Notes under the pieces: model-generated
Told to the model about the DNA's origin: nothing
What the model saw: only the letters and a program-made list of their open reading frames with translations
The model's database searches: none
Shown: piece by piece, positions 9,401 through 62,411 of the stretch
Position numbering within the stretch: position 1 is the stretch's first letter
How the letters are laid out: each line of letters opens with the position of its first letter
Translations under genes and position numbers: made by a program
DNA from: an uncultured delta proteobacterium
Lineage (GTDB): Bacteria; Myxococcota; Myxococcia; Myxococcales; Myxococcaceae
NCBI GenBank assembly: GCA_963771175.1
Contig: CAVYSY010000036.1
Coordinates: 32,001 to 96,000 of the forward strand
Reading direction: 5' to 3'
DNA length: 64,000 bases

Positions 9401-10222
9401 ATGTCTGTGTCCAACCGTCTGTTCGAGAAGAGGCGCCCGGTACATTCCCTGCTCGCGGTGCTCGTGGTCCTGGGGGCCGCGGTCGCGCATGCCGATGGCA
9501 TGAGCCTGGCCGAGGCCTACAAGGTCATCTCCACCCGCCGGTTCGTCGACCTCACCCACAGCTTCAGCCCCAGCACTCCAGTGTGGCAGGGCTTCGGTCA
9601 GGCCAGCTTCACCACCGCGTCGGACCCGAAGACCTACCGGCCCTACAACCTGGCGCAGGATGGTTTCCGGACGACCTACTATTCCATGGTGGGCCAGTAC
9701 GGCACCCACGTGGATCCGCCCGCGCACTTCCACGAGAACGCTCTCACCATGGACCGGATCCCGCTCCGGGAGATGATCCTGCCGCTGGTGGTCTTCGACA
9801 TCACCCCGATGCTCGGCAAGGACCCCAATTACGCGATCACCGTGCAGGACATCCTGGCCTGGGAGAAGAAGCACGGCCGCGTGCCGGCGGGGGCCTTCGC
9901 CGCGCTGCGGACGGACATGTACAAGGACTGGAACAACCACGAGCGCTTCAAGCGCTACCCGTTCCCCGCCTGGTCCCTGGCGGCCGTCCAGTTCCTCTTC
10001 CAGCAGCGAAACATCACCGCCATCGGCCATGAGTCGCTCGACACCGACATCACGACGACGATGGACTCGGAGACGTGGGTGCTGGGCCAGGGTCACTATC
10101 AGATCGAGGTCATGGCCCACCTGGACGAGGTGCCGCCCACCGGCGCCCTCATCGTGGTGACGTGGCCCAAGGTGGAGAACGGACTCGGGTTCCCGGCTCG
10201 CGCCTTCGCCATCCTCCCGTGA
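9401..10222 (+). CDS. Cyclase (kynurenine formamidase-like) family metal hydrolase, secreted
   Basis: FVDLTH, GQYGTHVDPPAHF, IGHESLDTD and GFPARAFAI motifs; signal-like N-terminus. Confidence 0.88.
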   Translation: MSVSNRLFEKRRPVHSLLAVLVVLGAAVAHADGMSLAEAYKVISTRRFVDLTHSFSPSTPVWQGFGQASFTTASDPKTYRPYNLAQDGFRTTYYSMVGQYGTHVDPPAHFHENALTMDRIPLREMILPLVVFDITPMLGKDPNYAITVQDILAWEKKHGRVPAGAFAALRTDMYKDWNNHERFKRYPFPAWSLAAVQFLFQQRNITAIGHESLDTDITTTMDSETWVLGQGHYQIEVMAHLDEVPPTGALIVVTWPKVENGLGFPARAFAILP

Positions 10223-17312: not shown

Positions 17313-17693
17313 GTGCCCAAGGTCACCTTCAGGAGCCCCCTGGACGACGTCACCGTGGAGGTGCCGACGGGGACCACCCTCCTCGAGGCCGCCGAGCAGT
17401 GCGGCGCCCAGGTGGGCCACTCCTGCGGCGGGCGTCTGCGCCTGCTCCACCTGCCACGTGTGGGTGCAGCAAGGGCCTGGAGTCGCTCTCCGAGCAGAGG
17501 ACGCAGGAGATGGACCGGCTGGACCAGGCCTTCGACGTGCGCCCCTACTCCCGCCTGGCCTGCCAGACCGAGGTGGGGAACGAGGATCTCGTGGTGGAGA
17601 TCACCGAGGAGTCCCTCACGGCCTTCATGGACGAGAACCCGGCCATCCGGCGCCGGCTCGGAGGCCGAGGGGAAGTGGCCGCTGAAGAAGTGA
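17313..17693 (+). CDS. fdx: ISC-type 2Fe-2S ferredoxin (frameshifts)
   Basis: VPKVTF...HSCGG(V)CACSTCHV...SRLACQ. Confidence 0.88.
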
Positions 17694-17708
17694 CGTTGCA
17701 CAACGTGC

Positions 17709-17737
17709 TTGACGGGGCCGACTGAGGCATCTATACA
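17709..17737 (+). promoter_or_regulatory. Probable sigma70-type promoter for the tRNA
   Basis: TTGACG-N17-TATACA about 40 bp upstream of tRNA-Leu. Confidence 0.55.
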
Positions 17738-42835: not shown

Positions 42836-42986
42836 GTGCAAAGGCAAGCCCTTTCTTCTGGCCTACCCGGGGCAGCGCCCAGTGTGTCAGCCAGACAACA
42901 AAACATGGAAGTCAAGTCTTTCTCGTTCCACGGGTTGCTGGCCATATCGCGCTGGAGTCCCCCCCACAATCCGACGGAGAAGATCG

Positions 42987-44558
42987 ATGTCCTGGCTGCG
43001 TGTCATTGCCCTATCGGCCATGGTCCTGGCGCTGAGCCTCGGTACCACCCCCGCATCCGCCTCATCCTTCCGCCTCGCCAACATCATGGTGCGCGATGGA
43101 GTGGTGCTGGATGCGAATGTCTTTACCCCCGACACGCCGGGGCCGCACCCTGCGATCATCTTCATCACCAGTTGGGCGTTGCCCAACATCGAGTACCTCG
43201 TGCAGGCCCAGCAGTTCGCCGACGCCGGGTACGTCGTGCTCTCGTACACCCCCCGCGGCTTCTACACCTCGGGCGGTTACATCGAGACGGCTGGGCCCAA
43301 GGACGTCAGCGATGTGAGCGACATCATCGACTGGCTGCTCACCAACACCTCCGCGGATCCGGCGCGCATCGGCGCGGCGGGCATCTCGTATGGCTCGGGG
43401 ATCAGCCTGCTCGGCTCCGCGTTCGACTCGCGCATCCGTGCCGTGGCCGCCGTGAGCACGTGGACCGACCTCCAGTACTCGCTGCTCGCGAACCAGACCC
43501 GCCACCAGCAGGCCGCCGGGCTGCTGAAGCTCTCCGGCGTGCTGACGGGGCGGCCCTCGGCGGAGCTGCAGCAGATTCTCTCGGACTACTTCGACAACCG
43601 GAACCTCGCGGGGATCAGCGCCTTCGCCCAGGTGCGCAGCGCCGCGACGTACCTCGACCGCATCAACGCGAACCGCCCCGCGATCCTCATCGCGAACGCC
43701 TATGGCGACAGCCTGTTCGCGCCCAATCAGCTCTCCGACTTCTACACCCGGCTGACGGGGCCCAAGCGGCTCGAGCTGCGCCCGGGAGATCACGCCATCC
43801 CGGAGCTGACCGGCGTCCTCGGTCTGCCCAATGACGCATGGACCAGCGTGCACCGCTGGTTCGACTACTACCTGCGTGGCGTGAACACCGGCATCGCCGC
43901 GGAGAAGCCGGTCCAGCTCCAGGTACGTGGCCAGAGTGGCTACGAGGCCTATTCGTCGTGGAGTGAAATCTCGACGAGCACCGCGCGCTACAACCTGGGC
44001 GAGGTGAACTGGTGGAACGGCGAGGGCGAGCTCGTGTCGAGCGCGCAGACCGGCTGGAGCCGGACGGTCTTCGCGGGCGACGACACCGTCGCCAACGGAG
44101 GCATCGTGATGCTGACGAACGGCGCCGAGGCGCTCACGGGTGAGCCGCCGATCGCGTGGATTCCCGCGGTGGACCGGGACAACGCGGGCGTCTGGCAGTC
44201 GGGCTCGCTGACGAGTGCGCGCCGTCTGCGTGGGGCCGCGCACCTGCGCCTGACGGTGACTCCGGGCAGCTCCGGGCAGACGACGATCATCGCCTACCTC
44301 TACGACACGGACGCGCTCGGGACCGGGCACCTGGTGACGCATGTGGCCTACACGATCCGGGGCGCGGTGGCCGGCCAGGCCTACACCGTGGACACCGACT
44401 TCCCGGCCACGGTCTACGACGTGCCGAGCGGGAACCGGCTCTCGCTCGTCGTCGACACCGTCGACCCGCTCTACGCCGACCAGGGAGCGCTGTTCACCTC
44501 GGTGAAGTTCTCCTCGCCGGGGACCAATCCGTCCTACGTGTCGCTGCCGCTCAAGTAA
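42987..44558 (+). CDS. CocE/NonD (peptidase S15-like) alpha/beta hydrolase, secreted
   Basis: Signal peptide, RDGVVLDA, YTPRG, GISYGSG nucleophile, PGDH, C-terminal jelly-roll-like domain. Confidence 0.88.
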   Translation: MSWLRVIALSAMVLALSLGTTPASASSFRLANIMVRDGVVLDANVFTPDTPGPHPAIIFITSWALPNIEYLVQAQQFADAGYVVLSYTPRGFYTSGGYIETAGPKDVSDVSDIIDWLLTNTSADPARIGAAGISYGSGISLLGSAFDSRIRAVAAVSTWTDLQYSLLANQTRHQQAAGLLKLSGVLTGRPSAELQQILSDYFDNRNLAGISAFAQVRSAATYLDRINANRPAILIANAYGDSLFAPNQLSDFYTRLTGPKRLELRPGDHAIPELTGVLGLPNDAWTSVHRWFDYYLRGVNTGIAAEKPVQLQVRGQSGYEAYSSWSEISTSTARYNLGEVNWWNGEGELVSSAQTGWSRTVFAGDDTVANGGIVMLTNGAEALTGEPPIAWIPAVDRDNAGVWQSGSLTSARRLRGAAHLRLTVTPGSSGQTTIIAYLYDTDALGTGHLVTHVAYTIRGAVAGQAYTVDTDFPATVYDVPSGNRLSLVVDTVDPLYADQGALFTSVKFSSPGTNPSYVSLPLK

Positions 44559-44611: not shown

Positions 44612-46778
44612 TCAGGGATGCGCGATGACGATGAGCGTTGACGCCCGAGCTTCGACGCACGTCATCACCTTGCGCATGGTCACGGGGTCCAGCGCACCGA
44701 ACGCCTCGTCGAGCACCACGACACTGGCCCGCTGCAGCAGCGCCCGGGCCACGAAGACACGGCTCTGCTCCCCATGCGAGAGCTGCCACCCGCTCTCCCC
44801 GACCAGTTGCATCAATCCCGAGGGCATCCGGGCCAGCAGCTCCCCCAGCCCCAGCTCCTCACAGAGCGCTCGGGCGTTTTGCAGATCCTCCTGCGAGGGA
44901 GGCCAGGCGCGGCCCAACAGCAGGTTCATGGCCAGCGTGCCGGACACCACGTGGTTCTCGTGGAACTGAGGAGCACTGGCGATCTGCGCGCCCCACCCGT
45001 GCGACGTCCAGGTCGCCATGTCCAGGCCTCCCAGCAACAACAGCCCCGAGCCCTGGCCCCTCAACCCCGTCAGGATGGAGGCGAACGTCGACTTGCCCGA
45101 GCCAGAGGGCCCCTCGAGCAGCACGCGCTCTCCCGAGCGAACCACCAGAGAGGCCCGCTCGAGCACCGCCCGTGGCGCCCCCGCGTGCTTGAAGACCAGA
45201 TCGCGCACCTCGAGCAGGGCCTGGGCCTTCGGGGGCGCCGCGCCTGGGGAGAGAGGAGAGGCGCGGGTCACCCTGCCCTTCTCGCTCTCACGGGCCGCCT
45301 CTCCCGAGGCGTTGGAGCGCTTCGCGGCATCCAGGATGGGACGCACGCTGTGAAACAACACGCGCGCGCCGCTGAGGGCCAGGGCTCCGGTGGTCAGCGC
45401 CGCCAGCGCGCGCGTCGCCATGAGCGCGGCCCCCACTCCCACGGCGATCCTCGCGGTCGAGGCTCCCGCGAGCACGCCTGGGAGCGTCGCGAGGATCGCC
45501 ACCGGGAGGAGTCCCCGCCTGGAGAGCGCCACCACCCGCGCCGTCGCCGCGTCCCACTGCTCGGAGGCCTCGGCATAGTGGGCCAGCTCATGGTCCTCCT
45601 CCTCGTGCCAGCGCGCCGGCAGCTCCTGCGCGAGCCGCGTCCGGTGGCCGAGCATCCGCTCGATGAGCGCATGCGTCATGACGACCCGCGCCTCCGTCCA
45701 CCTGCGGAAGCGTGAGCGACTGGCGCGCGATCAGCACCGCCAGCAAGCAGCAGAAGCCCCCCAGCACCAGCAGCCCGAGCCAGCCCGCGGGGCCGGTCAC
45801 CATCACGCTCGCCGCCAGCACCAGATCGATCGCCGCCAGGAGGCTGGTGAAGCTGCCCACCAGCGCCATCTGCTCCATCCCCGCGCTCTCGAAAGTCCTC
45901 CCGACGTACTCGCCAATTCCACCGCGGCGCGCCTCGTCCACGGGCAGCGCGAGCGCCCCCGCCAGCAGGTCGCCTGCGCAGCAGCGCGGAGAGGTCCATC
46001 GCCAGGGACCCCTGCGACCAGGCCAGCGCCGCCTGGAGCGGCACCATCGTCAACCCCATGAGGGCCCAGGCCCAGAGCCACCCATGGTCGAGCTGCCCAT
46101 TGAACGCGCCCCGTCCAATCAACCACCAACCGGCGAGCAGGCACACCTGGACGACCACCGCCAGCAGCAAGAGCAGGACCAGCCGCCGTCCGGCCCGCAG
46201 CGACCGCAGGTGATGGACCAGACGGGCTCCAGGTGGCAGCCGGAGCGTGCGCGCGGCGATGAGGTGGGTATTGGCGAGCTGGGCTCCCAGCAACGCCCGC
46301 CGGGCCAGGGTCCGCTGGGGTGCCGGCAGTCCCGCTCGCTCCAGGACGCGATCGGCCACGGGCCCCTGTTGCGCCCTCGACGATCGCCTGCACGGCGGCG
46401 GTCAGCAGGGAGAAGGGAACCTCGTGCGGCGTCTCATCCGGGGCGATGAGGTCCGCGGCTCTCCCCCGAGGGGGACACGCGAAGCAGTGCGAGCACCCTA
46501 CGCCCCTGGGTGCTCGGCACATCCACGAGGGCCGGGGCCGCGCGGCCCAGGGCACGTTCCACTTCGCCGTGGCGCGTGTAGAGCAACTCCAACTCGAGCC
46601 CCAGCGCATGGGCCGAGGCGTCCAGCCACGCCCCCACGCGGCTCGGGTCCTCGGGTACCGCGCGCGAGAGGACCGGGAGCGGATTGGGGAGCGGCAACCG
46701 CGCCGCACGCGCCAGCGCCTCCAGGGCTTCGCCCGCTCGCGCGAACGGCCAGGACACTGCGTCCAGCTCACCCGACAT
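44612..46778 (-). CDS. ABC exporter subunit with degenerate peptidase-like N-terminus (frameshifts)
   Basis: Stitched from several ORFs starting MSGELDAVSWP; TM region; GPSGSGKST, LSHGEQSR, VVLDEAF, IAH. Confidence 0.82.
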
Positions 46779-49474
46779 GAGCCACCCCCTCCTCCTCCTC
46801 CTCGTGTCGCTCGGAGAGCACGCCCTGCTCCAGGACCAGCCGCCTCCACCCCTCCCGCCTGGACAGCTCCCCCCGCATCGACGCCTCCTCATCCAGCAGT
46901 GCGCGGTAGTGGGAGTCCTCGCACGCCGCGAGCGCCTGGGGAGCCCCGTCCTCGACCAGCCTCCCGTCCTTGATGACCAGGACGCGGTCGAACGAGAGCG
47001 TCTCGGCGATGTCATGCATGATGCAGAGCAGCGTGGTCCCCTCGAATCCCTGTCGTGCCCGCTCCAACAGCGCCGTGCGACGGTCTCGCTCGAGTCCCCG
47101 GAACGGCTCGTCGAAGATGGCCAGCCGCACCCCTGGCCGGAGCAACGCCCGGCCCAGGCGCACCCGCTGCCCCTCACCGCCCGACAACAGACTGCCCCCC
47201 TCGCCCAGCCGGGTCTCGAGCCCCTGGGGCAGCTTGTCGAGCAACTCGATGAGGTCGGCCCTGTGCAGCACCTGGCCCACCCGGGGCAGCACCTCGGCCT
47301 CGTCGGCGCCATAGGCGAGGTTGTCCACCAGGGACTTGTTCCAGAGCGTCACCTCGGGCTCCAACCACGCCGTCTCCCGCCTCAGCCGCCACAGGGCCGC
47401 CCCCTCCAGCGGCTCGCCATCCACCTCGACGCGGCCCGCGGCCGCCGGTGCCAGCCCAGGAGGACTGCCCACCAGTGACGATTTCCCAGCGCCCGAGGGG
47501 CCCACGATGGCGACGTGCTCCCCGGGTTGAACCGAGACATCAATCCCTTGCAGGAGGGTGTGGCCCCCGGCCTTCACCTCCACCTGACGCAGCGAGAACC
47601 CAACCCCCCGAGCCCCTTCCACCGGTCGCTCCGTCTGTCCTGGGGTGGCCAGCGCGACGCTCGTGGACACCTCGTCCGGAGCGAGCAGTGGCTCCATCAA
47701 TCGGCCAGTGAACGACGAGGCGGCGGGGTACTGGCGCAACGCCTCGGCGATCTGCTTGCCCAGCGTCGGCACGGCGAGCGCCCAGTAGACGAGCAGCAGG
47801 ACAGCCCCGGGTTGTACCCCCTTCGAGAGGGCGTGCAGGACAATGACAACCGAGCCCCCGGTGGCGGCGAGGGAGGCGAGCGTGTCCGCCGTGGTGCTGC
47901 GGCGCAGCAACGTGCGGGCCGCGGAGATGAACTCGTGCAGCGGCTCCTCATGAGCCCGGCGGAGCGTCAGCTCGGCATGGTGCGCCCGCAGCGCCACGGC
48001 CCCGCGCAAGGCGTCGAGGTAGAAGCGCGAGAGCACCCCGTCGAAGTCCCGCATCCGGCGATCGGCTTCGAGCAACGAGCGCTGCGCGACGAGGGGGATG
48101 CCGAGCGCCAGCCCACCCGCCAGGAAGATCAAGGGGGCGCTTCGCGGAGCCAACCACGTCAGCCCCACGAGCGTCACGAACAGCTCGGCGGCGGCGCGCA
48201 GCACCAGGGCCGCGAGGTTGGGCACGTTGCGCACCATGTGGATGCCATGGCAGCGCTGGGCCATGTCCGAGATGAGCCGGCTGCGGAAATAGCTGTCACC
48301 CAGGCGTGGGATTTTGTCGAGGAACGCGAGCCGGAGGCGGAGTTCCAACCGCCGTCCCAGGCGGAGCGTCCCGAGAGAGAGAGGCAGCTCGATCGCGAAC
48401 AGCACGCCCATCAGGACGAGCAGCGTCACGACGCCGGCGATCCGCTGTTCGGTGGTCGTGAGATAACGACCCGCGTCGATGACCCCGCGCAGGAGCAGCG
48501 CCTCCAGGAAGCCGCCCACCGCCGCGGTCACCCCCATGGCGGCGAGCACCCTCGGCGTGAGCACCCCGTCCCGGCGCATCAAGGCCACGAGCTCACGCAG
48601 GGGGCGGGTGGGCGCCTCCTTCAAGACGGCCTCGAGCCCCGGAGACAGCGGGGGTTCATCCTCCCCGTGCTCGCCGCGCAGCCCCTTCGCCCGGATGCAG
48701 ACGACGCCGCGCAAGGTGATCTCCTCGGCGTCCGGCCCTCCCACCGCCGTCCAATAGGCGGGGGGAATGAGCTCCTCGGCGCGACCCTCGTCCAGGGCCG
48801 TGCGCACCTCGAGCAGGAGCTGCTCGACGAACGCCGCCGCCGTCTCGCCAGGCTGGAGGCCGTCACCCTCCACGAGCGTCTGCACCAACCGCACCGTCGC
48901 ATCCAGGCAGGCCAGGCCCTTCCAGGTGGAATCCCCGAGCGCCTCGGCGACGAGTCGCTCCGACAACGGCCCCTCGACGAGCTCGGACAGCCTGCGACGC
49001 AGACCCACGAGGAACTCCTCCGTGCCGGCCCACTCCCGGAACCCCTCGGCGGACACGGGCATCGCGTGCACGAAGCACCGGTCGAGCAGCTCGGCGGCGG
49101 ACACCCACCGCCGCCCCAGCGCCGGATCCATGATCTGGACGCGGTTGCCCCACTTCTTCCAGAGCACCACGAAGTGCAGGTTGCCGTCCGCGAGCCTCAC
49201 CACCACGATGGCCGGCAGCGCCCCGGTCTCCTCGAGGAGCAGGTGATCGCGCGGGAGCATGCCCTGCTCCGCATCCAGCCCGAGGCTGACGGCCAGCTCC
49301 TCGAGCACATCCATGGACGTGCCGTCGACGTCGGTCTGGCAGAGCTCTCGGAGCCGTCCATAGCTGACCGGCACGCCGGAAGCCGCCGAGCAGGGCCTTG
49401 AGGGCCGCCGGACCGCAGTCCATGGCCGACGTCTGGATGACTTCTGGAACGAAAAGACGTGGTGCACCCGCCAT
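46768..49474 (-). CDS. Peptidase-containing ABC transporter (C39 + TMD + NBD; frameshift near 49380)
   Basis: QTSAMDCG (catalytic Cys), HFVVL (His), IMDPALG (Asp); GPSGAGKSS, LSGGEGQR, IFDEPF. Confidence 0.9.
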
Positions 49475-49477
49475 GGC

Positions 49478-50674
49478 TCAGCTCCCCCCCTTCGGCGACT
49501 CCGTCCCGCCCTCTACCCGCAGGACCCTGGGTTGCTCCCGTGCCGGACGGTCGAGCCCCCGACCCAAGGTGCGAAGCACGAGCTGCGACGGCGTGGCCTT
49601 CCCCACCGCGACGTCCACGAGGCCAGGCAACCCATGCTCGAGCGGAATGCCCGGCGGCAGCTCATCCACCGAGAGCTCGACTCGCACCAGGCCATCGCGA
49701 GGCTCACTCGCCACCGCCACCACCGTGGCCTCCAGCATCCCGAACTCCGCCCAGGAGAAGCCCTCCAACCGCATGCGAGCCCGCTGACCCTCGCGGATAC
49801 GCCCCAGGGCCTCCGGGGAGAACTGCGCGACGACGCGCACGGGTCCACCGGCGACGATGGTCGCGATGGGGTCACCGGCCTTGAGCTGCGCGCCCACGCG
49901 TACGGAGCTCGTCTCGCCGAGGACGCCATCCGCCGGCGCTCGAATGATACGGCGCTCCAGCTCCTCGCGCAGGCGCTCCACGTTGGCGCGCGCGACGCTC
50001 TCGTCCGACTCGAGCCGGGCAATCTCTCCCTGCAGCGCGGCGAGGCGGGTGCGCCGATCGGTGGACTGAATGCCACCTTCCGCTCTCACCCGCGCCAGCG
50101 TGGCCCGCGCGGCCTGCTCCGCGGCCAGGGACCGCTCCAGCTCCGTATGGGACCTGCTCCACTCCATCTCGCTCAACACGCCCCGCTTCCAGAGCCGCTC
50201 GGTGGTGGACTCCTCCTCCTTGGCCCGCCGCGCGACCGCCTCGGCATCGATGAGCCGGGCCCGCGCCTCCTCCACGCCCGCGATCCCCTGCCCTTTTTGC
50301 TCCACCAGGCCATGCTGCTCGGCCTCGAGCTCCGCGCGCGCCGCCTCGAGCTGAGGCCCCAGTCCTTGAAGCACGGCCTCCGCCTCCGCTACCCGGCGCT
50401 CCTCCTGCACATGCTCCAGCTCGACGAGCACATCTCCCGCATGCACGGGGCGGTGAAGCTCCACCTGCGTCTTCACCACCCGTCCCGCCACGGGTGCATC
50501 AATGGCGTACACCTCGCCATGGAGCTCCAGACGCGCCTGCGCGCTGCGCTCGTAGACGATGATGCGCGCCTGGAGGAACCAGCCCCCCCAGATCGCGAGC
50601 AGCCCCACCGGTATCAGCCAGAGCGCCGGCCGCCCGCGCCCGCGCACCAGGGCGCGCCAGGTGCGTGGAAACAT
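49478..50674 (-). CDS. HlyD-family membrane fusion protein
   Basis: TM anchor, IDAPVAGRV, coiled coil, IRAPADG; start could be TTG 50701. Confidence 0.9.
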   Translation of the reverse strand: MFPRTWRALVRGRGRPALWLIPVGLLAIWGGWFLQARIIVYERSAQARLELHGEVYAIDAPVAGRVVKTQVELHRPVHAGDVLVELEHVQEERRVAEAEAVLQGLGPQLEAARAELEAEQHGLVEQKGQGIAGVEEARARLIDAEAVARRAKEEESTTERLWKRGVLSEMEWSRSHTELERSLAAEQAARATLARVRAEGGIQSTDRRTRLAALQGEIARLESDESVARANVERLREELERRIIRAPADGVLGETSSVRVGAQLKAGDPIATIVAGGPVRVVAQFSPEALGRIREGQRARMRLEGFSWAEFGMLEATVVAVASEPRDGLVRVELSVDELPPGIPLEHGLPGLVDVAVGKATPSQLVLRTLGRGLDRPAREQPRVLRVEGGTESPKGGS

Positions 50675-50900
50675 GCCTTCGACCTTCAAGTGGCTGGCCA
50701 AATCGCCCCCCGTCTCGACCGTGCCGTCCTGCGGATGGAGGGGGCCCGTTGGCTTTGTCAGGGAGAGTGACGCTCCGAGGGAGCGGCCTGCTCGTCCTCC
50801 AGGCAGGCGTCTCGCCCAGGCATTCCGGAGGTGCCTCGCGTCACAAGAACCACCCCCCTGCTCAGACCGTACGCGAATCACACCTGTCTGGAGCTCTCGC

Positions 50901-52712
50901 ATGAGTCAGAACGCTGTATCGGTTGATCCCCACGAGACGCTGTACCTGCCCCTGCGGCGTCGCTTCATGAGCGAGTACGTGACCACGCCCGAGGGCACCC
51001 GGGAGCTGCGCATCTTCTACGGCCTCAAGGAGATCACGATCGATGAGCCGGACCTGCTCTCCTTCGGAGAGAACCTGCTCAAGCAGGACGAGTTCATGGC
51101 GGGCAGCGCCACCCTATGGAGCGAGGGTGAGCCCTACCCCTGGGAGCGCGTGAGGGAGCTGCTCGAGGCGCTGCTGGACGAGGAGATTCTCTCGCGCGAG
51201 GCCCCGAAGCCCGCGCCTTCGGAGAGTGACGTTCATCGAAGCTGGATGGAGGCCGAGGCCCGGCGGGTCGCGCCCACCGAGCCCCTGTGGTGGAACCCGG
51301 ACTGTCCCCGGGTCATGGAGCGGTTGGTGGGGCGGCCGCTGGAGTTGGGCTTCCTCGAAGCGGTGATTCCGGTGCATCGCGTCGCCCACCCGGCGCTCGA
51401 CGCGGAGGGGCGCCATATCGGGGAGAGCAACGTCTTCCCCGACGCCATGCGAATGAAGCTTCCGACGGATTGGCGACCGTGCCCCTACCCGGGCAGCCGC
51501 TATCGGGACGAGGCGATGATGAACGTGACGGCGCTCAAGTCGATGACACGGCACTGGAAGTCCGTGTTGCAGGGGGTGCTCGCGGTGCGAGAGGAGTTCC
51601 TGCGCCACCATCCCCTGCTCCCGGACGGGCGCTGGCGGCTGGGGGATCTTCACGCCCTGTGCTGCGCCGTGCTGGCTCTACCAACCCTGCGGTTGATGCG
51701 CGCGAACGCGCCCGTGCCCAATGGCGAGCTGGATCCCGTGCTCTCCTCCATGTTCCGGGTGACGGACGGCGTGCGGATGGTGACGGCCTACATGCTCTTC
51801 CTCCCGGAGCTGCCGATGCCGTACGACACGCCCATGACGGCGGCCGAGCTGCTCCGCTTCACCGAGCAGGACAATCACTTCCTGTCGACGCGGGGCGTCT
51901 GCGCCGGTCCCCCGCACATGGTGGAGGAGTTCCTCGCGACGCTGATGGATGGCAAGCCCGTGGCGGGCGTGCCCAGGCCCGCGGAGGAGTGGGACGACGA
52001 AATCCCCACGGCGATGGATTACGGGATGCGGGGACTCCAGCTCTATTGCCTCCAGTTCAACCTGTGGAGCCACATGTGCCGCGCCTACGAGTCGATCCGC
52101 GCGGCGCTGCTCGACGTGGAGGATGAGCCGGGTGGAATCTGGAGCCGGATGCGCGCGCGTGTCGAACGCGATTGGGCGATGATCCTGCCCACGCGACTGC
52201 ACACCTCCACCCAGCGAGATTGGGCAGAGGCCCGCTACATCGAGATGTTCGATCAGGCCCAGCGCGGCCTGAAGGGCTTCCGGGAGGACGCGCTGCTTCG
52301 CTTGCAGGACGTGTTCACCCCCGCGAGGGACGAAATGGATGGGAAGACCCGCCGGCAACTCCGACAGATGCTCCGCTCGCTCGCGGGCTCGCCCCCGGGG
52401 GCCCGGAGAGACGCCCTCGACACCATCGCGGACGCCGCGGCGGAGTTCCTGGCCCTCGAGCGCTCAACGCTTCGCGCCCTGGAAGGTGTTCAGCGCCAGG
52501 TCAATGCGTTGCTCCAGCGCCCCCATCCAGCGCGAAAGTTCTCCAGCGCGGATCTCTCGCTGCATCTCCGCCTGCGCCAGGGCACCATCGGCGTGCTGCC
52601 CTACCTGCTGGATGTATTCCGGGATGAGCTGGGCATCGTCGTCGAGAATACGGAGGACGACACCCGCTGCGATCTGGTCAGCTCGCCCTACCAGCAGGTA
52701 GCCCAGATGTGA
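50901..52712 (+). CDS. 603-aa hypothetical protein, candidate RiPP maturase (RRE-like N-terminus, unknown catalytic domain)
   Basis: Intact ORF from ATG 50901 with GGAG RBS, between the exporter and the precursors. CDS is well supported; the function is inference. Confidence 0.85.
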   Translation: MSQNAVSVDPHETLYLPLRRRFMSEYVTTPEGTRELRIFYGLKEITIDEPDLLSFGENLLKQDEFMAGSATLWSEGEPYPWERVRELLEALLDEEILSREAPKPAPSESDVHRSWMEAEARRVAPTEPLWWNPDCPRVMERLVGRPLELGFLEAVIPVHRVAHPALDAEGRHIGESNVFPDAMRMKLPTDWRPCPYPGSRYRDEAMMNVTALKSMTRHWKSVLQGVLAVREEFLRHHPLLPDGRWRLGDLHALCCAVLALPTLRLMRANAPVPNGELDPVLSSMFRVTDGVRMVTAYMLFLPELPMPYDTPMTAAELLRFTEQDNHFLSTRGVCAGPPHMVEEFLATLMDGKPVAGVPRPAEEWDDEIPTAMDYGMRGLQLYCLQFNLWSHMCRAYESIRAALLDVEDEPGGIWSRMRARVERDWAMILPTRLHTSTQRDWAEARYIEMFDQAQRGLKGFREDALLRLQDVFTPARDEMDGKTRRQLRQMLRSLAGSPPGARRDALDTIADAAAEFLALERSTLRALEGVQRQVNALLQRPHPARKFSSADLSLHLRLRQGTIGVLPYLLDVFRDELGIVVENTEDDTRCDLVSSPYQQVAQM

Positions 52713-52786: not shown

Positions 52787-52897
52787 ATGAAGATCAAGAC
52801 GAAGATTCGGGGTGGTGCGCGCACGTGCTTCGGTGGCATCTTCGGACCCATCGTCGTTCGCCCCCCAGTCCTCCGACCGCCCATCTCCCTCGCGTAG
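52787..52897 (+). CDS. Putative RiPP precursor A1: MKIKTKIRGG-ARTCFGGIFGPIVVRPPVLRPPISLA
   Basis: Manual translation; strong RBS AAGGAGGAG; double-Gly leader shared with A2 and A3. Confidence 0.85.
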   Translation: MKIKTKIRGGARTCFGGIFGPIVVRPPVLRPPISLA

Positions 52898-52931: not shown

Positions 52932-52967
52932 AGTCGCCAGTGGGCGGAGCATCGCCTGCTGGCGACT
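52932..52967 (+). terminator. GC-rich stem-loop after precursor A1 (copy 1)
   Basis: AGTCGCCAGTGGGCG-GAGCAT-CGCCTGCTGGCGACT, with only a weak T-tract. Confidence 0.6.
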
Positions 52968-53093: not shown

Positions 53094-53162
53094 ATGAAGG
53101 TCAAGACCAAGGTTCGTGGTGGTGCTCGGATGTGCAGCGGCGGCAGCGGCACTTTCTTCTAG
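53094..53162 (+). CDS. Putative RiPP precursor A2: MKVKTKVRGG-ARMCSGGSGTFF
   Basis: Manual translation; RBS AGGAGGAG-CAAACAC-ATG. Confidence 0.85.
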   Translation: MKVKTKVRGGARMCSGGSGTFF

Positions 53163-53212: not shown

Positions 53213-53278
53213 ATGAAGATCAAGACCAAGATTCGGGGCGGAGCTCGCTCGTGTAGCGGCGGCGGCACCTTCTTCTAG
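53213..53278 (+). CDS. Putative RiPP precursor A3: MKIKTKIRGG-ARSCSGGGTFF
   Basis: Manual translation; same RBS context as A2; forms the C-terminus of track ORF 53048..53278. Confidence 0.85.
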   Translation: MKIKTKIRGGARSCSGGGTFF

Positions 53279-53302: not shown

Positions 53303-53344
53303 AGTCGCCAGTGGGCGGAACATCGCCCGCTGGCGACTCTTTTT
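53303..53344 (+). terminator. Rho-independent terminator after precursor A3 (copy 2 of the stem-loop)
   Basis: AGTCGCCAGTGGGCG-GAACAT-CGCCCGCTGGCGACT followed by CTTTTT. Confidence 0.75.
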
Positions 53345-53365
53345 CGTGGGAGGGTCTGGAGGGGA

Positions 53366-57650: not shown

Positions 57651-60600
57651 TCAGCCCTGCTCGTCGGTTTTCGGGTCGGAGGGAGCTGCCTCGGATGCCG
57701 GCGAACCGGCGGGCGAGGCGGGTGTGCTCCCCTTTGGGCGGCGAAGTAAATCATTCTTCACCGCGTTGATCTCGGCGTTGGCCCGCGCGTAGATGTCCTG
57801 AACGGTGTTCGACCCCGCCCGGGCCGAGCTGCGCTTGAGCGTGGCCAGTTCGGACGCCTGTCCCTCCAGGCGCTGCTGCTGCTCCGCGATTGCCGCATCG
57901 CGCTCGGCCAGGGTGGCCTGGAGGGTCTCGAGCTCGCTCTGCAGGCGCTCCACTTCCTCGGACAGCTCCAGCACGGCCTCGGAGTCCGATACCGGCTTGC
58001 GCGTTTCGAGCTGCTTGATCTTCTCCCGCAACCCGGCCCGCTCGCTCTCGAGGGCCTGGAGCCGAGCCCCCAGCGCCTCGGCGGCCTGGGCCTGCTTCGC
58101 CTTCTCCGTACGCTCGGCGTCGAGGAACTTCACCGCCTCCGCGGAGGCCGCCTCCAGCGCGGTCACCCGGCCCTCCAGACGGATACGGGCCGCGCGGGCC
58201 ACCGTGAGATCCGAGCTGAGCCGCTCACGCTCGGACACGAGCCCGGCCTTCTCCGATTCCAGCTTCGCGAACTGCTCCTGCACGGCCTGCGCGGAAGCCT
58301 CCCGCTCCCGGGCCTGCCGCTCGACCTCGTTCGCCTTGGACTCCAGCTCGGCCAGCTTCTCCTTCGCGGAGGCCTCCTGCTCCCGGGCCTGCTGTCTGGC
58401 TTCATCCGCCAAGGCCTCCAGCTCGGCCAGCTTCTCCTTCGCGGCCTCCAGACTGGCGGTGGTCTCCGAGAGACGGACCTCGAGCTGGCTCGCCGACTGC
58501 TCCGCCTCCGAGACCCGCTCCCGCTCCGCCTCGGTGGCCGAGTGGGCCCGGACCAGCTCCGCGCGTACGTCCTCGAGCTGGGCGCGGGTGGCCTCGACAG
58601 CCGCGCGCTCCTTCTCCAGCTCGGCCCGGGCGGCCTCGACCGCCGCGCGCTCCTCCTGGAGGGCGGATTCGAGAGAGGGCGCCTTGCCCGCGATACGCCG
58701 CGCCGATTCGAGCTGCACGGTGAGCAGCTCCGCCTGCTCGTGCTCCGCGGTGAGCCGGGCCTGGGCCTCGGTCAGCTCCGTCTGGAGGTGCGCGATGTGG
58801 GCATCGCGATCGCGCAGGCCCATGTGGGCTTGCTGGAGGGCCATCGAGGCCTGCTGTGCCTGGAACCGGGCGGCCTCGAGCTGTCCCACCTGGGCCCGCA
58901 GCACCGCCAGCTCCTCGTCCTTCCTCGCGAGGTCGTCCCGGAGCCCCTCCAGCTCCACCCGGGACTCCACCGCGTCGCGCTTCCGGGCCTCGCGCTCCGT
59001 GGAGATGGCCTCCTCGCGCGCACGGGCCTCCGCGAGCCGCGCCTCGGCCTCGCGCAGCTTCTCCTCGAGCTCGCGGGCGCGCGAGTCCAGGCCAGAGGCC
59101 CGGGTGGTCTCGGCCTCGTGCTCGGAGCGCAGGCGCGTGAGGGCCTCCTGCTGCTCCTTGGACGTGCCGCGCTCCCACTCCAGGCTCGACCGGAGCTCCT
59201 CGACGAGCTGCTTCTGCTCGACCAGGGCGACGCCGAGGTCCTTCCCCTCGCGCAGGGCCGTCTCCAGCTCCTCGCGCAGGGCCGCGGCCTCCTGCCGGGC
59301 CACCTCCAGGGCCTCGAGCCGCGCCCGCTCGCGTTCGTCCGCGCCCGCCCGGGCGGACTCCAGGTCCGCGCGCGCCTCGGCCAGCGACTGCTCCACGGCC
59401 TCGCGCCCGGTGCGCTCCGAGTCCAGCTCGCGCCGGGTCTCCGCGAGGGTGGCCTCCACCTGCTCGCGTCCCTGCTGCTGGGACTCCGCCTCGGTACGGG
59501 CCTGGGCCAGCGAGGCCTCCAGTGCTTCCCGCTCCCGCCGTGCCTCTTCGAGCTCCGCCTCGGTCCGGGCGCGCTGCCGCCGCTCGGTATCGAGGTCCGT
59601 CCGGGCGGTACCGAGCGAAGCCTCGGTCTGCGCCTTGCTCTCGCGCTCCCACTCCAGCTCGGCGCGGGCCGATGCGAACGACTCCTCGGCCTGGGTGCGC
59701 TGCTTCCGCTCGGCGTCGAACTCCGCGCGAACCGACGCGAGCGACTCCTCGGCCTGGGTGCGCTGCCGCCGCTCGGTGTCGAGCTCCGCGCGGACCTGCG
59801 TGAAGGCCTCCTCCGACTGCCCATGCACCTGCTGCGCGGAGTCGAGCTCGGCACGGGCGGAGGCCAGCGCGGCCTCGAGCCCGGTGCGCTGCCGACGCTC
59901 CGATTCGAGCGCGGACCGCTCCTGCGCCAGGGTCTCCTCCACCTCGGCCCACTGCCGCCGCTCCGATTCGAGCTCGGCCCGCTCCTGCGTCAGAGCCGCT
60001 TCCACCCCGGCCCGCTGCTGCCGCTCCCCTTCGAGCTCGGTCCGGGTCCTCGCGTTCTCCTCATCCACCAGGAGACGCTGCTGCCGCTCCGCCTTCAGCT
60101 CCGCCCGGGCCCTCGCGAGCGACTCCCGCGCCTCCGCGAGCTGCTGCCGCTCCCCCTCGAGGTCCGCCTGCGTCGACGTCCCCGCCTCCTCCAGCAGGGT
60201 GCGCTGATTCCGCTCGACCTCGAGCTCGGCCTGGACTCGCGCCAGGGCCTCTTCCAGCCGCGCCCTTCCCTGCTGTTCGAGCGCGAGCCCGGCCAGGGCC
60301 TGCTCTCGGGCCTCGTCCGCCTTCGCCCGCTCCTGCTGCTCGGCCGCGATGGTGCCCTGCGTCGCCTTCAGCGCCGCGTCGAGCCGGGCGATCGACTCCA
60401 CGTCCGAGGCCCGCGCCCGCTCCAGCTCGGTGAGCGTCGCCTCGGCCTCCACCACGCGCCGCCGTAGGGCACCACGCTCATCGGCCCACTCCTGCCGTTG
60501 GGCCTCCAGCTCGGCGAGGACGCGCGCCGCCTCCTCGCGCGCGGCCACCTCCACCGCCATCTGGTTCTCGAGCCCCTCGGCCCGATGCTGCTGGGCCTCG

Positions 60601-62411
60601 CGCGCGGCCTTCTCCCGAGCGGCCTCGGCAACAGCCGCCTCCGCCCTCGCCAGCGCCTCCGCGACCGCCTGCTCCAGCCGCTCGTCCGCGAGCCGGCGCT
60701 CTTCCTCGATCGCCGCCTCCAGCTCCGCCGCGGCGTGGACCCGCTCCTGCTCGTGCGACTCCAGGCGAGCCTGGGCCTCGTGAAGGGCCTGCTCGAGCTT
60801 CGCGGCCGCCGCCCGGACGTGCTCCTCCGCGCGCGAGCGGGCCTCCACCTCGGCCTGGAGCTGCTCCACCCCGGCGCGAGCCGCCGTGAGCTCCGTCTCC
60901 AGCCCCCGCCACTCGGCCTCGCGCGCGGTCAGACGAACTTCCGCGTCCCGCCGGCCCGCCTCCGCGGACGACACGCGCCGGGCACCGTCCTCCACCTCGC
61001 GCGACATGCGCGCCAGGTCCGCGTCGCGCGAGCGCAGCAGCTCCTCGGCCGCCTTGCGCGACGCCTCGGCCCGGGTCACGTCCGTCTTGAGGTGCTCCAC
61101 CGCGGCGAGCGCCGTGGAGTACTGCTCGGCGATGCGCAGCTCGCGCTCGCGGGCCGCCTCCGCCTGCCGCCGCAGGTCCTCGAGCTGCTCCCGAGCGCGC
61201 TCGGTGACGAGCCGGTCCTTCTCGCGCTCGACGCGCAGGCCGGCCATCTCGTCCTGCAGCTCGCGCAGGTGGGTGTACGCCTGGGTGAGGCGCTCGCGCG
61301 ACTCCTCCAGGGAGGTGTTCAGCTCCTCGCGGCGCGCCCGCTCCAGCCGCAGCGCCTCCTGGGAGCCCAGGGTCTGGATGTCCGCGTCCTTCCGAGCGCG
61401 CTCGGCGGCCTCCAGCTCCAGTCGCTGCTGGGTGAGGCGCCGGTCCGCGTCGGACACGCGCTCCAGGGCCACCTGCAGCTCCAGCTCGGTGCGGCGCAGG
61501 CGGGAGGACAGCTCGTCGCGCTCGCGGGTGGACTCGGGGGTGCCGCGCGCCTGCTCCAACTGCGCGGTGAGCCGGGCCACGTCGTCGCGGGCGATCTCCA
61601 GGGCGGGCTTGAGCTGGGTCACCTCGGTCTCGCGGTCGGTCAGCTCCGCGCGCAGCCGGGTGAGGGACTCCTTGAGGCGACCGGTGCGCTCCTCCCAGCC
61701 CTTGGCGCGCTGGGCCACCTCGTCCAGCTTGCCGCGCGTGAAGGCGAGCGGCTCGGGCGGCAGCTGCACCCAGGTGGGGTCCACGATGCGCGCCGGCTCG
61801 TGGCCGGCCACCACGACGAAGTAGGCCGCCTCGCTGCCGCGGATGAGGGTGCCGTCCACCGGGAGGCCCTCGCCCTTCTCGAAGGCGAGCTGGTAGCCCA
61901 GCACCGGGGACTGGGTGGCCACCTCCACGTGGGGGAAGTGCGGCGAGAGCGCGTCGAGGAGCTGCCCGTACGTGGGCGGCACGCCCTCCTCGAGGTCCAT
62001 GAGCTGCCAGAGCGCCAGCCCCGCCGCGTTGCGCAGGCCGCCGAGGAGGTAGCCCTGCCGATTCACCAGCCGCGCCAGCTCGGCGAGCAGCGTGGGTGCG
62101 CGCACGTAGGGCGCGAGGTCCGCGACGAGCACCAGGTCGAAGCTGCCGGGCTCGAGGTCGTCGTAGACATTGGCGCGGTAGCGCAGCGTGGCGCTGCCAT
62201 GGGCCTTCTGCGCCGCCTCCACCGCCTTGAGGTCCGCGTCGCAGGCCACCACGGTGCGGGCCCCGCGCTCCAGGAGGAAGCGCGCGCTCTCGCCACCGGT
62301 GGTCGCGACCGCGTCCACTTCGAGCACGCGGCGGCGTGCGAAGAGGCTCTCCGCGAAGATGTACCGGGGCAACAGCTCGCTGGTCCCCAGGCGGCGGAAT
62401 GTGGGATGCAT
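57651..62411 (-). CDS. Class I SAM-methyltransferase-like head fused to about 1350-aa coiled coil
   Basis: RY.FA...RRVLEV...VVACD...SFDLV N-terminus; E/A/R heptad repeats with 21-aa periodicity in the centre. Confidence 0.85.
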   Translation of the reverse strand: MHPTFRRLGTSELLPRYIFAESLFARRRVLEVDAVATTGGESARFLLERGARTVVACDADLKAVEAAQKAHGSATLRYRANVYDDLEPGSFDLVLVADLAPYVRAPTLLAELARLVNRQGYLLGGLRNAAGLALWQLMDLEEGVPPTYGQLLDALSPHFPHVEVATQSPVLGYQLAFEKGEGLPVDGTLIRGSEAAYFVVVAGHEPARIVDPTWVQLPPEPLAFTRGKLDEVAQRAKGWEERTGRLKESLTRLRAELTDRETEVTQLKPALEIARDDVARLTAQLEQARGTPESTRERDELSSRLRRTELELQVALERVSDADRRLTQQRLELEAAERARKDADIQTLGSQEALRLERARREELNTSLEESRERLTQAYTHLRELQDEMAGLRVEREKDRLVTERAREQLEDLRRQAEAARERELRIAEQYSTALAAVEHLKTDVTRAEASRKAAEELLRSRDADLARMSREVEDGARRVSSAEAGRRDAEVRLTAREAEWRGLETELTAARAGVEQLQAEVEARSRAEEHVRAAAAKLEQALHEAQARLESHEQERVHAAAELEAAIEEERRLADERLEQAVAEALARAEAAVAEAAREKAAREAQQHRAEGLENQMAVEVAAREEAARVLAELEAQRQEWADERGALRRRVVEAEATLTELERARASDVESIARLDAALKATQGTIAAEQQERAKADEAREQALAGLALEQQGRARLEEALARVQAELEVERNQRTLLEEAGTSTQADLEGERQQLAEARESLARARAELKAERQQRLLVDEENARTRTELEGERQQRAGVEAALTQERAELESERRQWAEVEETLAQERSALESERRQRTGLEAALASARAELDSAQQVHGQSEEAFTQVRAELDTERRQRTQAEESLASVRAEFDAERKQRTQAEESFASARAELEWERESKAQTEASLGTARTDLDTERRQRARTEAELEEARREREALEASLAQARTEAESQQQGREQVEATLAETRRELDSERTGREAVEQSLAEARADLESARAGADERERARLEALEVARQEAAALREELETALREGKDLGVALVEQKQLVEELRSSLEWERGTSKEQQEALTRLRSEHEAETTRASGLDSRARELEEKLREAEARLAEARAREEAISTEREARKRDAVESRVELEGLRDDLARKDEELAVLRAQVGQLEAARFQAQQASMALQQAHMGLRDRDAHIAHLQTELTEAQARLTAEHEQAELLTVQLESARRIAGKAPSLESALQEERAAVEAARAELEKERAAVEATRAQLEDVRAELVRAHSATEAERERVSEAEQSASQLEVRLSETTASLEAAKEKLAELEALADEARQQAREQEASAKEKLAELESKANEVERQAREREASAQAVQEQFAKLESEKAGLVSERERLSSDLTVARAARIRLEGRVTALEAASAEAVKFLDAERTEKAKQAQAAEALGARLQALESERAGLREKIKQLETRKPVSDSEAVLELSEEVERLQSELETLQATLAERDAAIAEQQQRLEGQASELATLKRSSARAGSNTVQDIYARANAEINAVKNDLLRRPKGSTPASPAGSPASEAAPSDPKTDEQG

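Follow-up and report, generated by a model that had tools for sequence, protein, structure and literature searches.

The stretch analysed here, referred to as the window, comprises 64,000 nucleotides (nt) of DNA from an uncultured delta proteobacterium assigned to the Myxococcaceae (GenBank assembly GCA_963771175.1, contig CAVYSY010000036.1, positions 32,001 to 96,000 of the forward strand), and its G+C content is approximately 70%. On its forward strand, at 50901..52712, lies the gene for a signature protein of 603 amino acids (aa), here called X, which is considered together with the small genes that follow it and the exporter encoded upstream. The open reading frame (ORF) of X is complete, with 603 codons and a stop codon and no interruption, and a GGAG is found 7 nt before its ATG. 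A longer frame opens at 50559, but the alignment with the relatives of X (579-627 aa) begins at the start that reads MSQ.

In the initial annotation, X was described as a candidate orphan maturase. The label “orphan” was not borne out, as there are three precursor-like mini-genes directly downstream of X and an exporter with a C39 peptidase upstream, and this pairing is conserved across phyla. The first mini-ORF (52787..52897, forward strand) codes for 36 aa, MKIKTKIRGG followed by an R-x-C core, and matches the leader pattern described below, with AGGAGG 8 nt upstream; the second (53094..53162, forward; 22 aa) and the third (53213..53278, forward; 21 aa) are also preceded by AGGAGG, which in all three is located about 8 nt ahead of the ATG. 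All start with M-K-I/V-K-T-K-I/V-R-G-G and continue with A-R-x-C, and the leader codons of the second differ from those of the first and third mostly by synonymous changes. The unit formed by X and the three mini-ORFs is closed by a strong intrinsic terminator (53303..53348, forward), which consists of a 16-pair stem (11 G-C pairs), a 4-nt loop and a T run, its hairpin being at 53303-53338. A further hairpin, recognised by eye after mini-ORF 1 (52932..52967, forward; a partial stem was called at 52952-52965), has the same arms as this terminator and no strong T run. The same G+C-rich hairpin (arms AGTCGCCAGYGGGC... / ...GCYCGCTGGCGACT) is present after precursor genes at 52932-52967 and 53303-53338 and in loci L084, L089, L096 and L098; shared by the window and several Archangium loci, it is an element conserved in these operons, either a terminator or an attenuator.

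The exporter genes are encoded on the reverse strand, divergently from X. The closest one codes for an HlyD-family membrane-fusion protein (49478..50902, reverse), which matches Pfam HlyD_3 (5.7e-17) and, weakly, the HlyD of NHLP systems, and which probably starts in reality inside this longest ORF. Beyond it are a peptidase-containing ATP-binding cassette (ABC) transporter (PCAT; 46768..49474, reverse), with Pfam matches to Peptidase_C39 (4.4e-13) and ABC_tran, and a second ABC permease/ATPase (44612..46660, reverse) in at least five frame pieces, the last of which matches ABC_tran. The components that define a PCAT, namely a C39 domain with its catalytic Cys, an ABC core and an HlyD partner, are present, in a window copy that is frame-changed. 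The N-terminal piece with the catalytic-Cys motif is located in the ORF at 48863-49474, and a tblastn search with the intact orthologue from locus L013 places the frame change at approximately 49376, just after this motif (frames -1 then -2). For the second ABC, the L013 orthologue gives frames -3, -1, -2, -3 and -1, that is, at least four frame changes. The breaks (44612-49474) are near short C or G runs and may be assembly errors or gene decay; the assembly itself is 82% complete and consists of 58 contigs. In other genomes, HlyD and/or ABC relatives were found in the fetched flank of 41 of the 76 loci described below (29 of the 50 loci with full flanks), including loci from Gamma-, Beta- and Alphaproteobacteria and from a Planctomycetota metagenome-assembled genome (MAG).

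X belongs to a large family. At E<=1e-3, 390 relatives were retrieved by word-indexed searching; their sources name all of them “hypothetical protein”, and precomputed Pfam domains are absent throughout (0/390). Searching 1.84 billion cluster representatives with a profile gave 1072 matches at E<=1e-3, 202 of them at E<=1e-30. Scanning X against Pfam and NCBIfam, lanthipeptide and YcaO models included, returned no family, and none of 31 relatives matched Pfam even at E<=1. The closest relatives are found in Archangium, Hyalangium and Vitiosangium; matches at E<=1e-20 are present in 36 of the 301 sampled genomes of the phylum of the window, and 34 of 115 other genomes of its own family have an X match. 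With one genome per species, 195 stretches encoding an X relative were obtained, from which 76 loci were kept (Myxococcota, Methylococcales, Steroidobacter, Burkholderiales, Reyranellaceae, one Planctomycetota MAG and one Acidobacteria MAG); at the level of phyla and classes, X occurs in Myxococcota, Gamma-, Beta- and Alphaproteobacteria, Planctomycetota and Acidobacteria. Of the 150 representatives of the family listed, six of the longer ones were scanned with Pfam; a DUF7059+MTS methyltransferase is fused to the C-terminus in three of these, and a GNAT domain to the N-terminus in one. No membrane segment is seen in X, whose Kyte-Doolittle means over 19 residues reach 1.44 at most, and no signal peptide was recognised on reading its N-terminus by eye, no predictor being used; thus, X would be soluble and cytoplasmic, and would act before export.

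Precursor-like genes accompany X in nearly all these loci. In a scan of the 76 public loci and the window, leader-type mini-ORFs were found to flank X relatives in 74 of 77 loci, with 1-8 per X and up to eight tandem copies; two of the remaining loci (L058 and L061) end at a contig edge, and the third (L003) has just 273 nt upstream of X. The scan yielded 155 mini-ORFs, 146 of them distinct, of 15-57 aa, and a Shine-Dalgarno motif precedes 144 of the 155. Their leader is basic and 10 residues long, with the consensus M-K-[IV]-K-T-x-[IV]-R-[GA]-G; among the 146 distinct peptides, Lys2 is present in 136, Thr5 in 127, Arg8 in 118 and Gly10 in 142. By contrast with the conserved leader, the cores that follow it are hypervariable, Gly/Pro-rich and 4-47 residues long. 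Precursors of this sort, with conserved leader and variable core, adjoining the gene of the presumed enzyme in 74 of 77 loci, are what defines a cluster for peptides that are made on the ribosome and modified after translation (RiPPs).

The cores also follow rules of their own. When five peptides from the same genome and its relatives are added to the 146 (151 in total), Arg is present in 151/151 cores and Cys in 143/151, with an Arg at most two residues from the Cys in 134 of the 143 Cys-bearing cores; exactly one Cys is found in 134 of the original 146. A lipoprotein signal peptide was ruled out for the mini-ORFs, since there is no hydrophobic stretch ahead of the Cys. CaaX-like prenylation was dropped as a general rule, as only 59 of 141 peptides have their Cys 1-3 residues from the C-terminal end and some cores have no Cys. 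The leader is, additionally, specific to the vicinity of X: a DNA pattern derived from it has four matches in the 9.8-Mb genome from which the window comes, three in the window and one beside a second X copy, and the reversed control pattern has none. In 61 genomes of the family, seven have matches (control, 0), and in each of the five with known X positions (G000, G212, G118, G090 and G201), the pattern is at most 8 kb from an X gene.

At its N-terminus, X has an acidic winged-helix domain (residues 1-100; 50901..51200, forward) with the topology of PqqD and of RiPP recognition elements (RREs), that is, strands and then three helices. In an AlphaFold2 model of X (mean predicted local distance difference test, pLDDT, 88; predicted template modelling score 0.83), DSSP assigns strands to residues 23-28, 34-40 and 43-47 and helices to 50-59, 67-72 and 81-93, an order that fits the one read from the sequence in the initial annotation. 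In this model, residues 1-100 have the three-stranded sheet followed by three helices, in some 85-95 residues, that is typical of RREs. Regarding the proposal that this N-terminus is RRE/PqqD-like, the fold and the PqqD-type structural neighbours uphold it, while a sequence match to Pfam PqqD is absent: the profile PF05402 does not match X at E<=0.01 nor any of 31 relatives at E<=1. Among the 25 structural matches listed for residues 1-108, 13 are RiPP enzymes that align through N-terminal or internal leader-binding domains, which we take to be RREs. Led by PqqD, these include TigE, MccB, ThcOx, the RRE of PbtF bound to a peptide, MibB and TbiB1 with its leader, and further McbB, a BmdB-BmdC entry, a lasso B1 with its leader, TbtB, MadB and LynD. 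Another neighbour is the winged helix of JmjC ribosomal oxygenases (MINA53, NO66, YcfD); in these, as in rickettsial PKMT, the winged helix is C-terminal and sits on JmjC or methyltransferase folds, whereas in X it is N-terminal to an unrelated helical domain.

The net charge of this domain is -3 to -10, being acidic in 31/31 relatives, while that of the leader peptides is +2 to +4, and the leader alternates basic and beta-branched residues. In solved RRE complexes, the leader adds a strand to the winged helix, and a similar addition to the winged helix of X would fit both the charge complementarity and the alternating pattern of the leader. Given this complementarity and the linkage of the genes, the leader is predicted to be held by the N-terminal domain. 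A complex prediction with X and the 36-aa precursor, carried out with each given as an alignment and with no controls, had runs that scored 0.21, 0.46 and 0.31; their median of 0.31 is just under the mark of 0.32, and the prediction is not used here in either direction.

The rest of the protein (residues 104-603) is helical in the AlphaFold2 model, and includes a conserved core (approximately residues 130-365; 51288..51995, forward), defined by two alignments and with pLDDT mostly >90, and a bundle of long helices (approximately residues 365-541; 51993..52523, forward). Six motif-like segments had been pointed out in the initial annotation, and these turned out to be invariant or near-invariant columns and the most conserved parts of the family in an alignment of 31 sequences (38-77% identity). 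The conserved positions are H163 and D167 in HRVAHP...D, E175 and N177 in RHIGE, C194, G198 and R200 in CPYPGSRY, N208 in MNVTALKSM, R286, D289 and R292 in FRVTDGVRM, and C334 in GVCAGP. Invariant in the 31 sequences are H163, D167, E175, N177, R184, C194, R200, N208, R286, D289, R292 and C334, and these 12 residues hold, with the addition of E153, R230 and S282, when 41 sequences spanning six phyla, down to 31% identity, are aligned separately. At an overall identity of 35-40%, there are about 30 invariant columns, many of them polar, and those polar residues that are invariant in the core domain have the look of an active site.

No catalytic fold was recognised, and it is therefore conservation and context that lead us to call X an enzyme. 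Foldseek searches of the PDB, with the full model and with a model of residues 104-603, gave nothing at E<=0.001 (best TM-scores of about 0.1-0.2), a PDB sequence profile search returned apolipoprotein-like coiled noise, and the ESM Atlas had no usable match for residues 105-603, one relative giving winged-helix leads below the threshold (0.82). The Cys residues of X are at positions 135, 194, 254, 255, 334, 383, 393 and 590, in agreement with the initial remark that no CxxxCxxC motif is visible, and the family scans agree with its remark that there is no known lanthipeptide or YcaO signature. A putative metal dependence is based on the invariant His/Cys/Cys set. LanC-like and other Zn-dependent thiol-alkylating enzymes have an alpha-toroid fold with a Cys-Cys-His zinc site; in X, H163, C194 and C334 are invariant, and no LanC-like chain is found among the matches listed.

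Paralogues are informative about specificity. In a FastTree phylogeny of 36 X proteins, from which the rows of loci L035-L076 were left out, the Archangiaceae form a clade A (6 rows, support 99), whose neighbours encode cores of the R-G-C-G-G-G type, and a clade B (10 rows, support 84), in which 7 of 10 are accompanied by C-R-x-Y-type cores; four genomes hold one X in each clade. Where X genes occur as tandem triplets, each has its own core type, and two tandem paralogues of L026 each pair with a single-locus X of similar core type. That the paralogues keep to their own core type argues that X would read the core, and not the leader alone.

The genome of the window has two further copies of X. 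A second full one is on contig C32 (L082:8060-9847, reverse), with a single mini-ORF of the C-R-x-Y core type (10067-10156, reverse) and no exporter within approximately 6 kb; presumably, the window locus supplies the exporter for this copy too. Contig C50 holds a distant copy with no N-terminal domain. This paralogue has 466 aa, retains the motifs CPYxGSR, PMNxxxLK and VCAGP, has no winged helix, and carries Leu at the position of His163; it has 14 relatives, all “hypothetical”. Its gene is directly downstream of that for a PRMT-like arginine methyltransferase of 460 aa, which matches PrmA and PRMT_C in Pfam and has an N-terminal extension of approximately 170 residues, the two genes spanning L081:1848-3248 and 3284-4666 (reverse). 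Because Arg is universal in the precursor cores, this pair could be a split variant of the X system.

Taking these observations together, we consider it probable that X is the maturase by which an undescribed, RiPP-like family of secreted mini-peptides is defined, and that the three downstream mini-ORFs are its substrates. The steps that we infer, from leader binding and catalysis, with its site and kind of modification, to export, would be as follows. The acidic N-terminal winged helix would hold the basic, strand-prone leader of 10 residues, as RRE domains do. The large helical domain, in which one His, two Cys and numerous Arg, Asp, Glu and Asn are invariant, would then modify the short core at or near the universal Arg, usually in an Arg-(x)-Cys dyad. 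The C39-peptidase ABC exporter would cut after Gly-Gly (or Ala-Gly) and, together with HlyD and, in other genomes, also a TolC-like protein, would expel a product of 4-47 residues. Arg is the universal feature of the cores, and the reaction is placed no more closely than at or next to the Arg/Cys dyad; as for its chemistry, a metal- or Cys-assisted reaction on this dyad is a guess, and one that we regard as rather doubtful.

Several points weigh against this proposal. First, in the searches made, residues 104-603 match no catalytic fold, cofactor site or family. Second, the conservation of the leader could serve the C39 peptidase alone. Third, the exporter genes of the window have a frame break in the PCAT and four or more in the second ABC, and this copy may be inactive for export, unless the breaks are assembly errors. 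Fourth, there is a subgroup of X proteins of 584 aa whose precursors have 14-16 aa, no Cys, and cores of 4-6 residues that end in Arg. The X of this subgroup that was read (582 aa; complete Myxococcus-like genome G118, L083) keeps H163, D167, E175, N177, C194, R200, N208, R286, D289, R292 and C334, and lacks R184, which is invariant in the alignment of 31 sequences. As the subgroup with Cys-free precursors keeps nearly all the invariant residues, the Cys of the substrate cannot be the universal target; for the same reason, alkylation of this Cys by a Zn-thiolate mechanism (LanC- or farnesyltransferase-like) was demoted as the common reaction. Cys-free precursors are encoded at 17665-17709 (forward) of L083 and also in L086, L087, L088 and L093, being the sole precursor in the Myxococcus-type subgroup. 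If exported, such a peptide of 14-16 aa would be among the shortest ribosomal precursors known.

The operon of G118 has the order HlyD-PCAT-ABC-OEP-X-APH kinase (OEP, outer membrane efflux protein), with one precursor gene divergent upstream. Three RNA runs of a relative that is approximately 96% identical cover an operon of this type evenly, with about 20-110 reads per bin when both orientations are summed, which gives weak support to its transcription. These data also belong with the points against the proposal, since the libraries look unstranded, the depth is flat and collapses over the diverged precursor region, and the mini-ORF is not covered.

Other functions for X have to be weighed against its proposed role as a maturase. 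One of them, which we consider improbable, is that X is a cytoplasmic peptide receptor or regulator of the Rap, Rgg, PlcR or ComR type (the RRNPP receptors), whose body would bind a re-imported peptide while the winged helix binds DNA or a partner, the peptides being unmodified double-glycine pheromones. As in RRNPP receptors, a helical protein is encoded beside a small and hypervariable gene for its cognate peptide, which differs from paralogue to paralogue, and the one-to-one fidelity between paralogue and core is typical of receptor-pheromone pairs. Cores as short as 4-6 residues and the two-component and sigma-factor genes near some X loci point in the same direction. However, the N-terminal domain, acidic in 31/31 relatives, has the strands-first order of PqqD and not that of a DNA-reading helix-turn-helix (HTH), and neither X nor the 31 relatives have an HTH or tetratricopeptide repeat (TPR) match in Pfam. 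About 30 invariant columns, many polar, conserved across phyla fit badly with hypervariable ligands, and a receptor would not be expected to be accompanied by up to 8 different precursor genes or to be fused to methyltransferase and GNAT domains. X also differs from RRNPP systems in that a C39 exporter would serve for export of its several precursors.

It also seems unlikely that X is a non-catalytic helper, that is, a chaperone or adaptor handing the basic mini-precursors to the C39 exporter, or an immunity protein for unmodified bacteriocin-like peptides. An adaptor would account for the conserved association with PCAT and HlyD, for the leader-binding-like domain and for the failure of the searches to give a recognisable catalytic fold. 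Nevertheless, X and its precursors occur with no exporter within 6 kb in 35 of 76 loci (21 of the 50 with full flanks), and the invariant set of His, Cys, Asp, Glu and Arg would be unusual in a chaperone. As regards immunity, the proteins known to confer it against double-glycine bacteriocins are small and located in the membrane, unlike a soluble protein of 600 aa, and cores of 4-6 residues are too short for pore-forming toxins that need immunity. Finally, it is very unlikely that X is a Cys/His-type processing peptidase trimming the precursor, for instance, at the conserved Arg. In its favour are the invariant Cys194, Cys334 and His163, which together with Asn/Asp might make up a catalytic triad, the presence of Arg in every core, and the precedent of lasso-peptide B proteins, in which an RRE is joined to a Cys protease. 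Against it, the searches revealed no fold of the papain, transglutaminase or caspase type (an absence that is not proof), His163 is replaced by Leu in the RRE-less paralogue that retains both Cys, and leader removal is already supplied by the C39 domain.

X can also be compared with known systems. In RRE-dependent RiPP maturases, such as PqqD/PqqE, lasso B1/B2, MccB, cyclodehydratases of the LynD/TruD type and class I LanB, there is, as in X, a winged helix of approximately 90 residues (strands and then three helices) fused to a larger body, and small precursor genes with conserved leader and variable core adjoin the maturase gene. By contrast, the body of X has no detectable relation to their enzyme domains, X has no PqqD match at the sequence level, and its associated leader has only 10 residues. 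The X locus also resembles double-glycine export systems (PCAT with HlyD, as in the NHLP/Nif11 “NHLM” systems, class II microcins and ComC/ComAB), with which it shares a C39-peptidase ABC, a second ABC and HlyD, as well as precursors whose conserved N-terminus ends in Gly-Gly or Ala-Gly. Classical double-glycine leaders have approximately 15-25 residues, and the X system differs from these systems in its 10-residue leader, in cores down to 4-6 residues and in the additional signature protein of 600 aa. Moreover, its exporter matches the NHLP models TIGR03794, TIGR03796 and TIGR03797 weakly and below their cut-offs (34.6 vs 156.2, 138.7 vs 853.3 and 126.9 vs 709.4 bits, respectively). The RiPP-type logic of leader-binding domain, precursor array and PCAT is known; what is new is the signature domain, together with a leader of 10 residues and the rule for Arg and Cys in the cores.

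In a Pfam survey of 100 neighbour ORFs from 30 X loci, TolC-like OEP proteins were found in 5 loci, methyltransferases in 3, subtilases in 2, and MauG-type di-haem peroxidases (10 proteins) in 8. The loci with such MauG/CCP-type peroxidases are L036, L044, L042, L071, L035, L057, L051 and L013, and the proteins are unusually large: some have approximately 740 aa, others 555-610 aa including a cytochrome c part of the RoxA type. Oxidation of the exported peptide in the periplasm may be their role; the region 29934-63384 of the window encodes none. In L038, an arginase-family protein directly follows seven precursors. A secreted-looking protein of the S15/X-Pro dipeptidyl-peptidase family is encoded at 42882-44558 (forward) of the window, abutting the exporter genes, and an S9/DPP-IV-type peptidase is present near the X triplet of L025; it is possible that such peptidases trim Pro-rich cores. 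Unrelated to X, the window also encodes, at 57651-62411 (reverse), a 1586-aa protein made up mostly of Glu/Ala/Arg-rich coiled-coil repeats, with an N-terminus that by eye is methyltransferase-like.

A literature search by leader strings, by accession numbers and locus tags of the relatives and by keywords gave no description of the family or of its peptides. In the passages searched of the two RRE-Finder papers and in one small supplementary text, the latter with none of five UniProt ids, the family was not found; their large data tables may list it as an RRE fusion.

In a broader sense, we tentatively propose that X marks an unrecognised and widespread RiPP class, with a new helical enzyme fold, about the shortest leader (10 residues), and peptides of 4-47 residues modified at Arg-(x)-Cys, possibly through a guanidine/thiol side-chain link or an alkylation, and exported by a tripartite PCAT system. 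In approximately a quarter of the sampled loci, MauG-like oxidation would also be possible, and in predatory myxobacteria and methanotrophs the products could serve for signalling or for binding metals. If X does modify peptides, this would mean a new RiPP class, a new enzyme fold and probably a new peptide chemistry, in a class that would span hundreds of genomes of myxobacteria, methanotrophs and Burkholderiales; the gene arrangement recurs in many bacteria of soil and freshwater. The system is unusually compact, with a single enzyme, a leader of 10 residues and cores of as few as 4, so that tests in E. coli should be easy and its use in peptide engineering is attractive. A role as maturase would, additionally, provide a function for a large family of “hypothetical proteins” (1072 cluster representatives). 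Peptide signalling in social predatory bacteria is poorly understood, and the proposal, if true, would indicate that these organisms secrete small peptides, which might be signals or metallophores.

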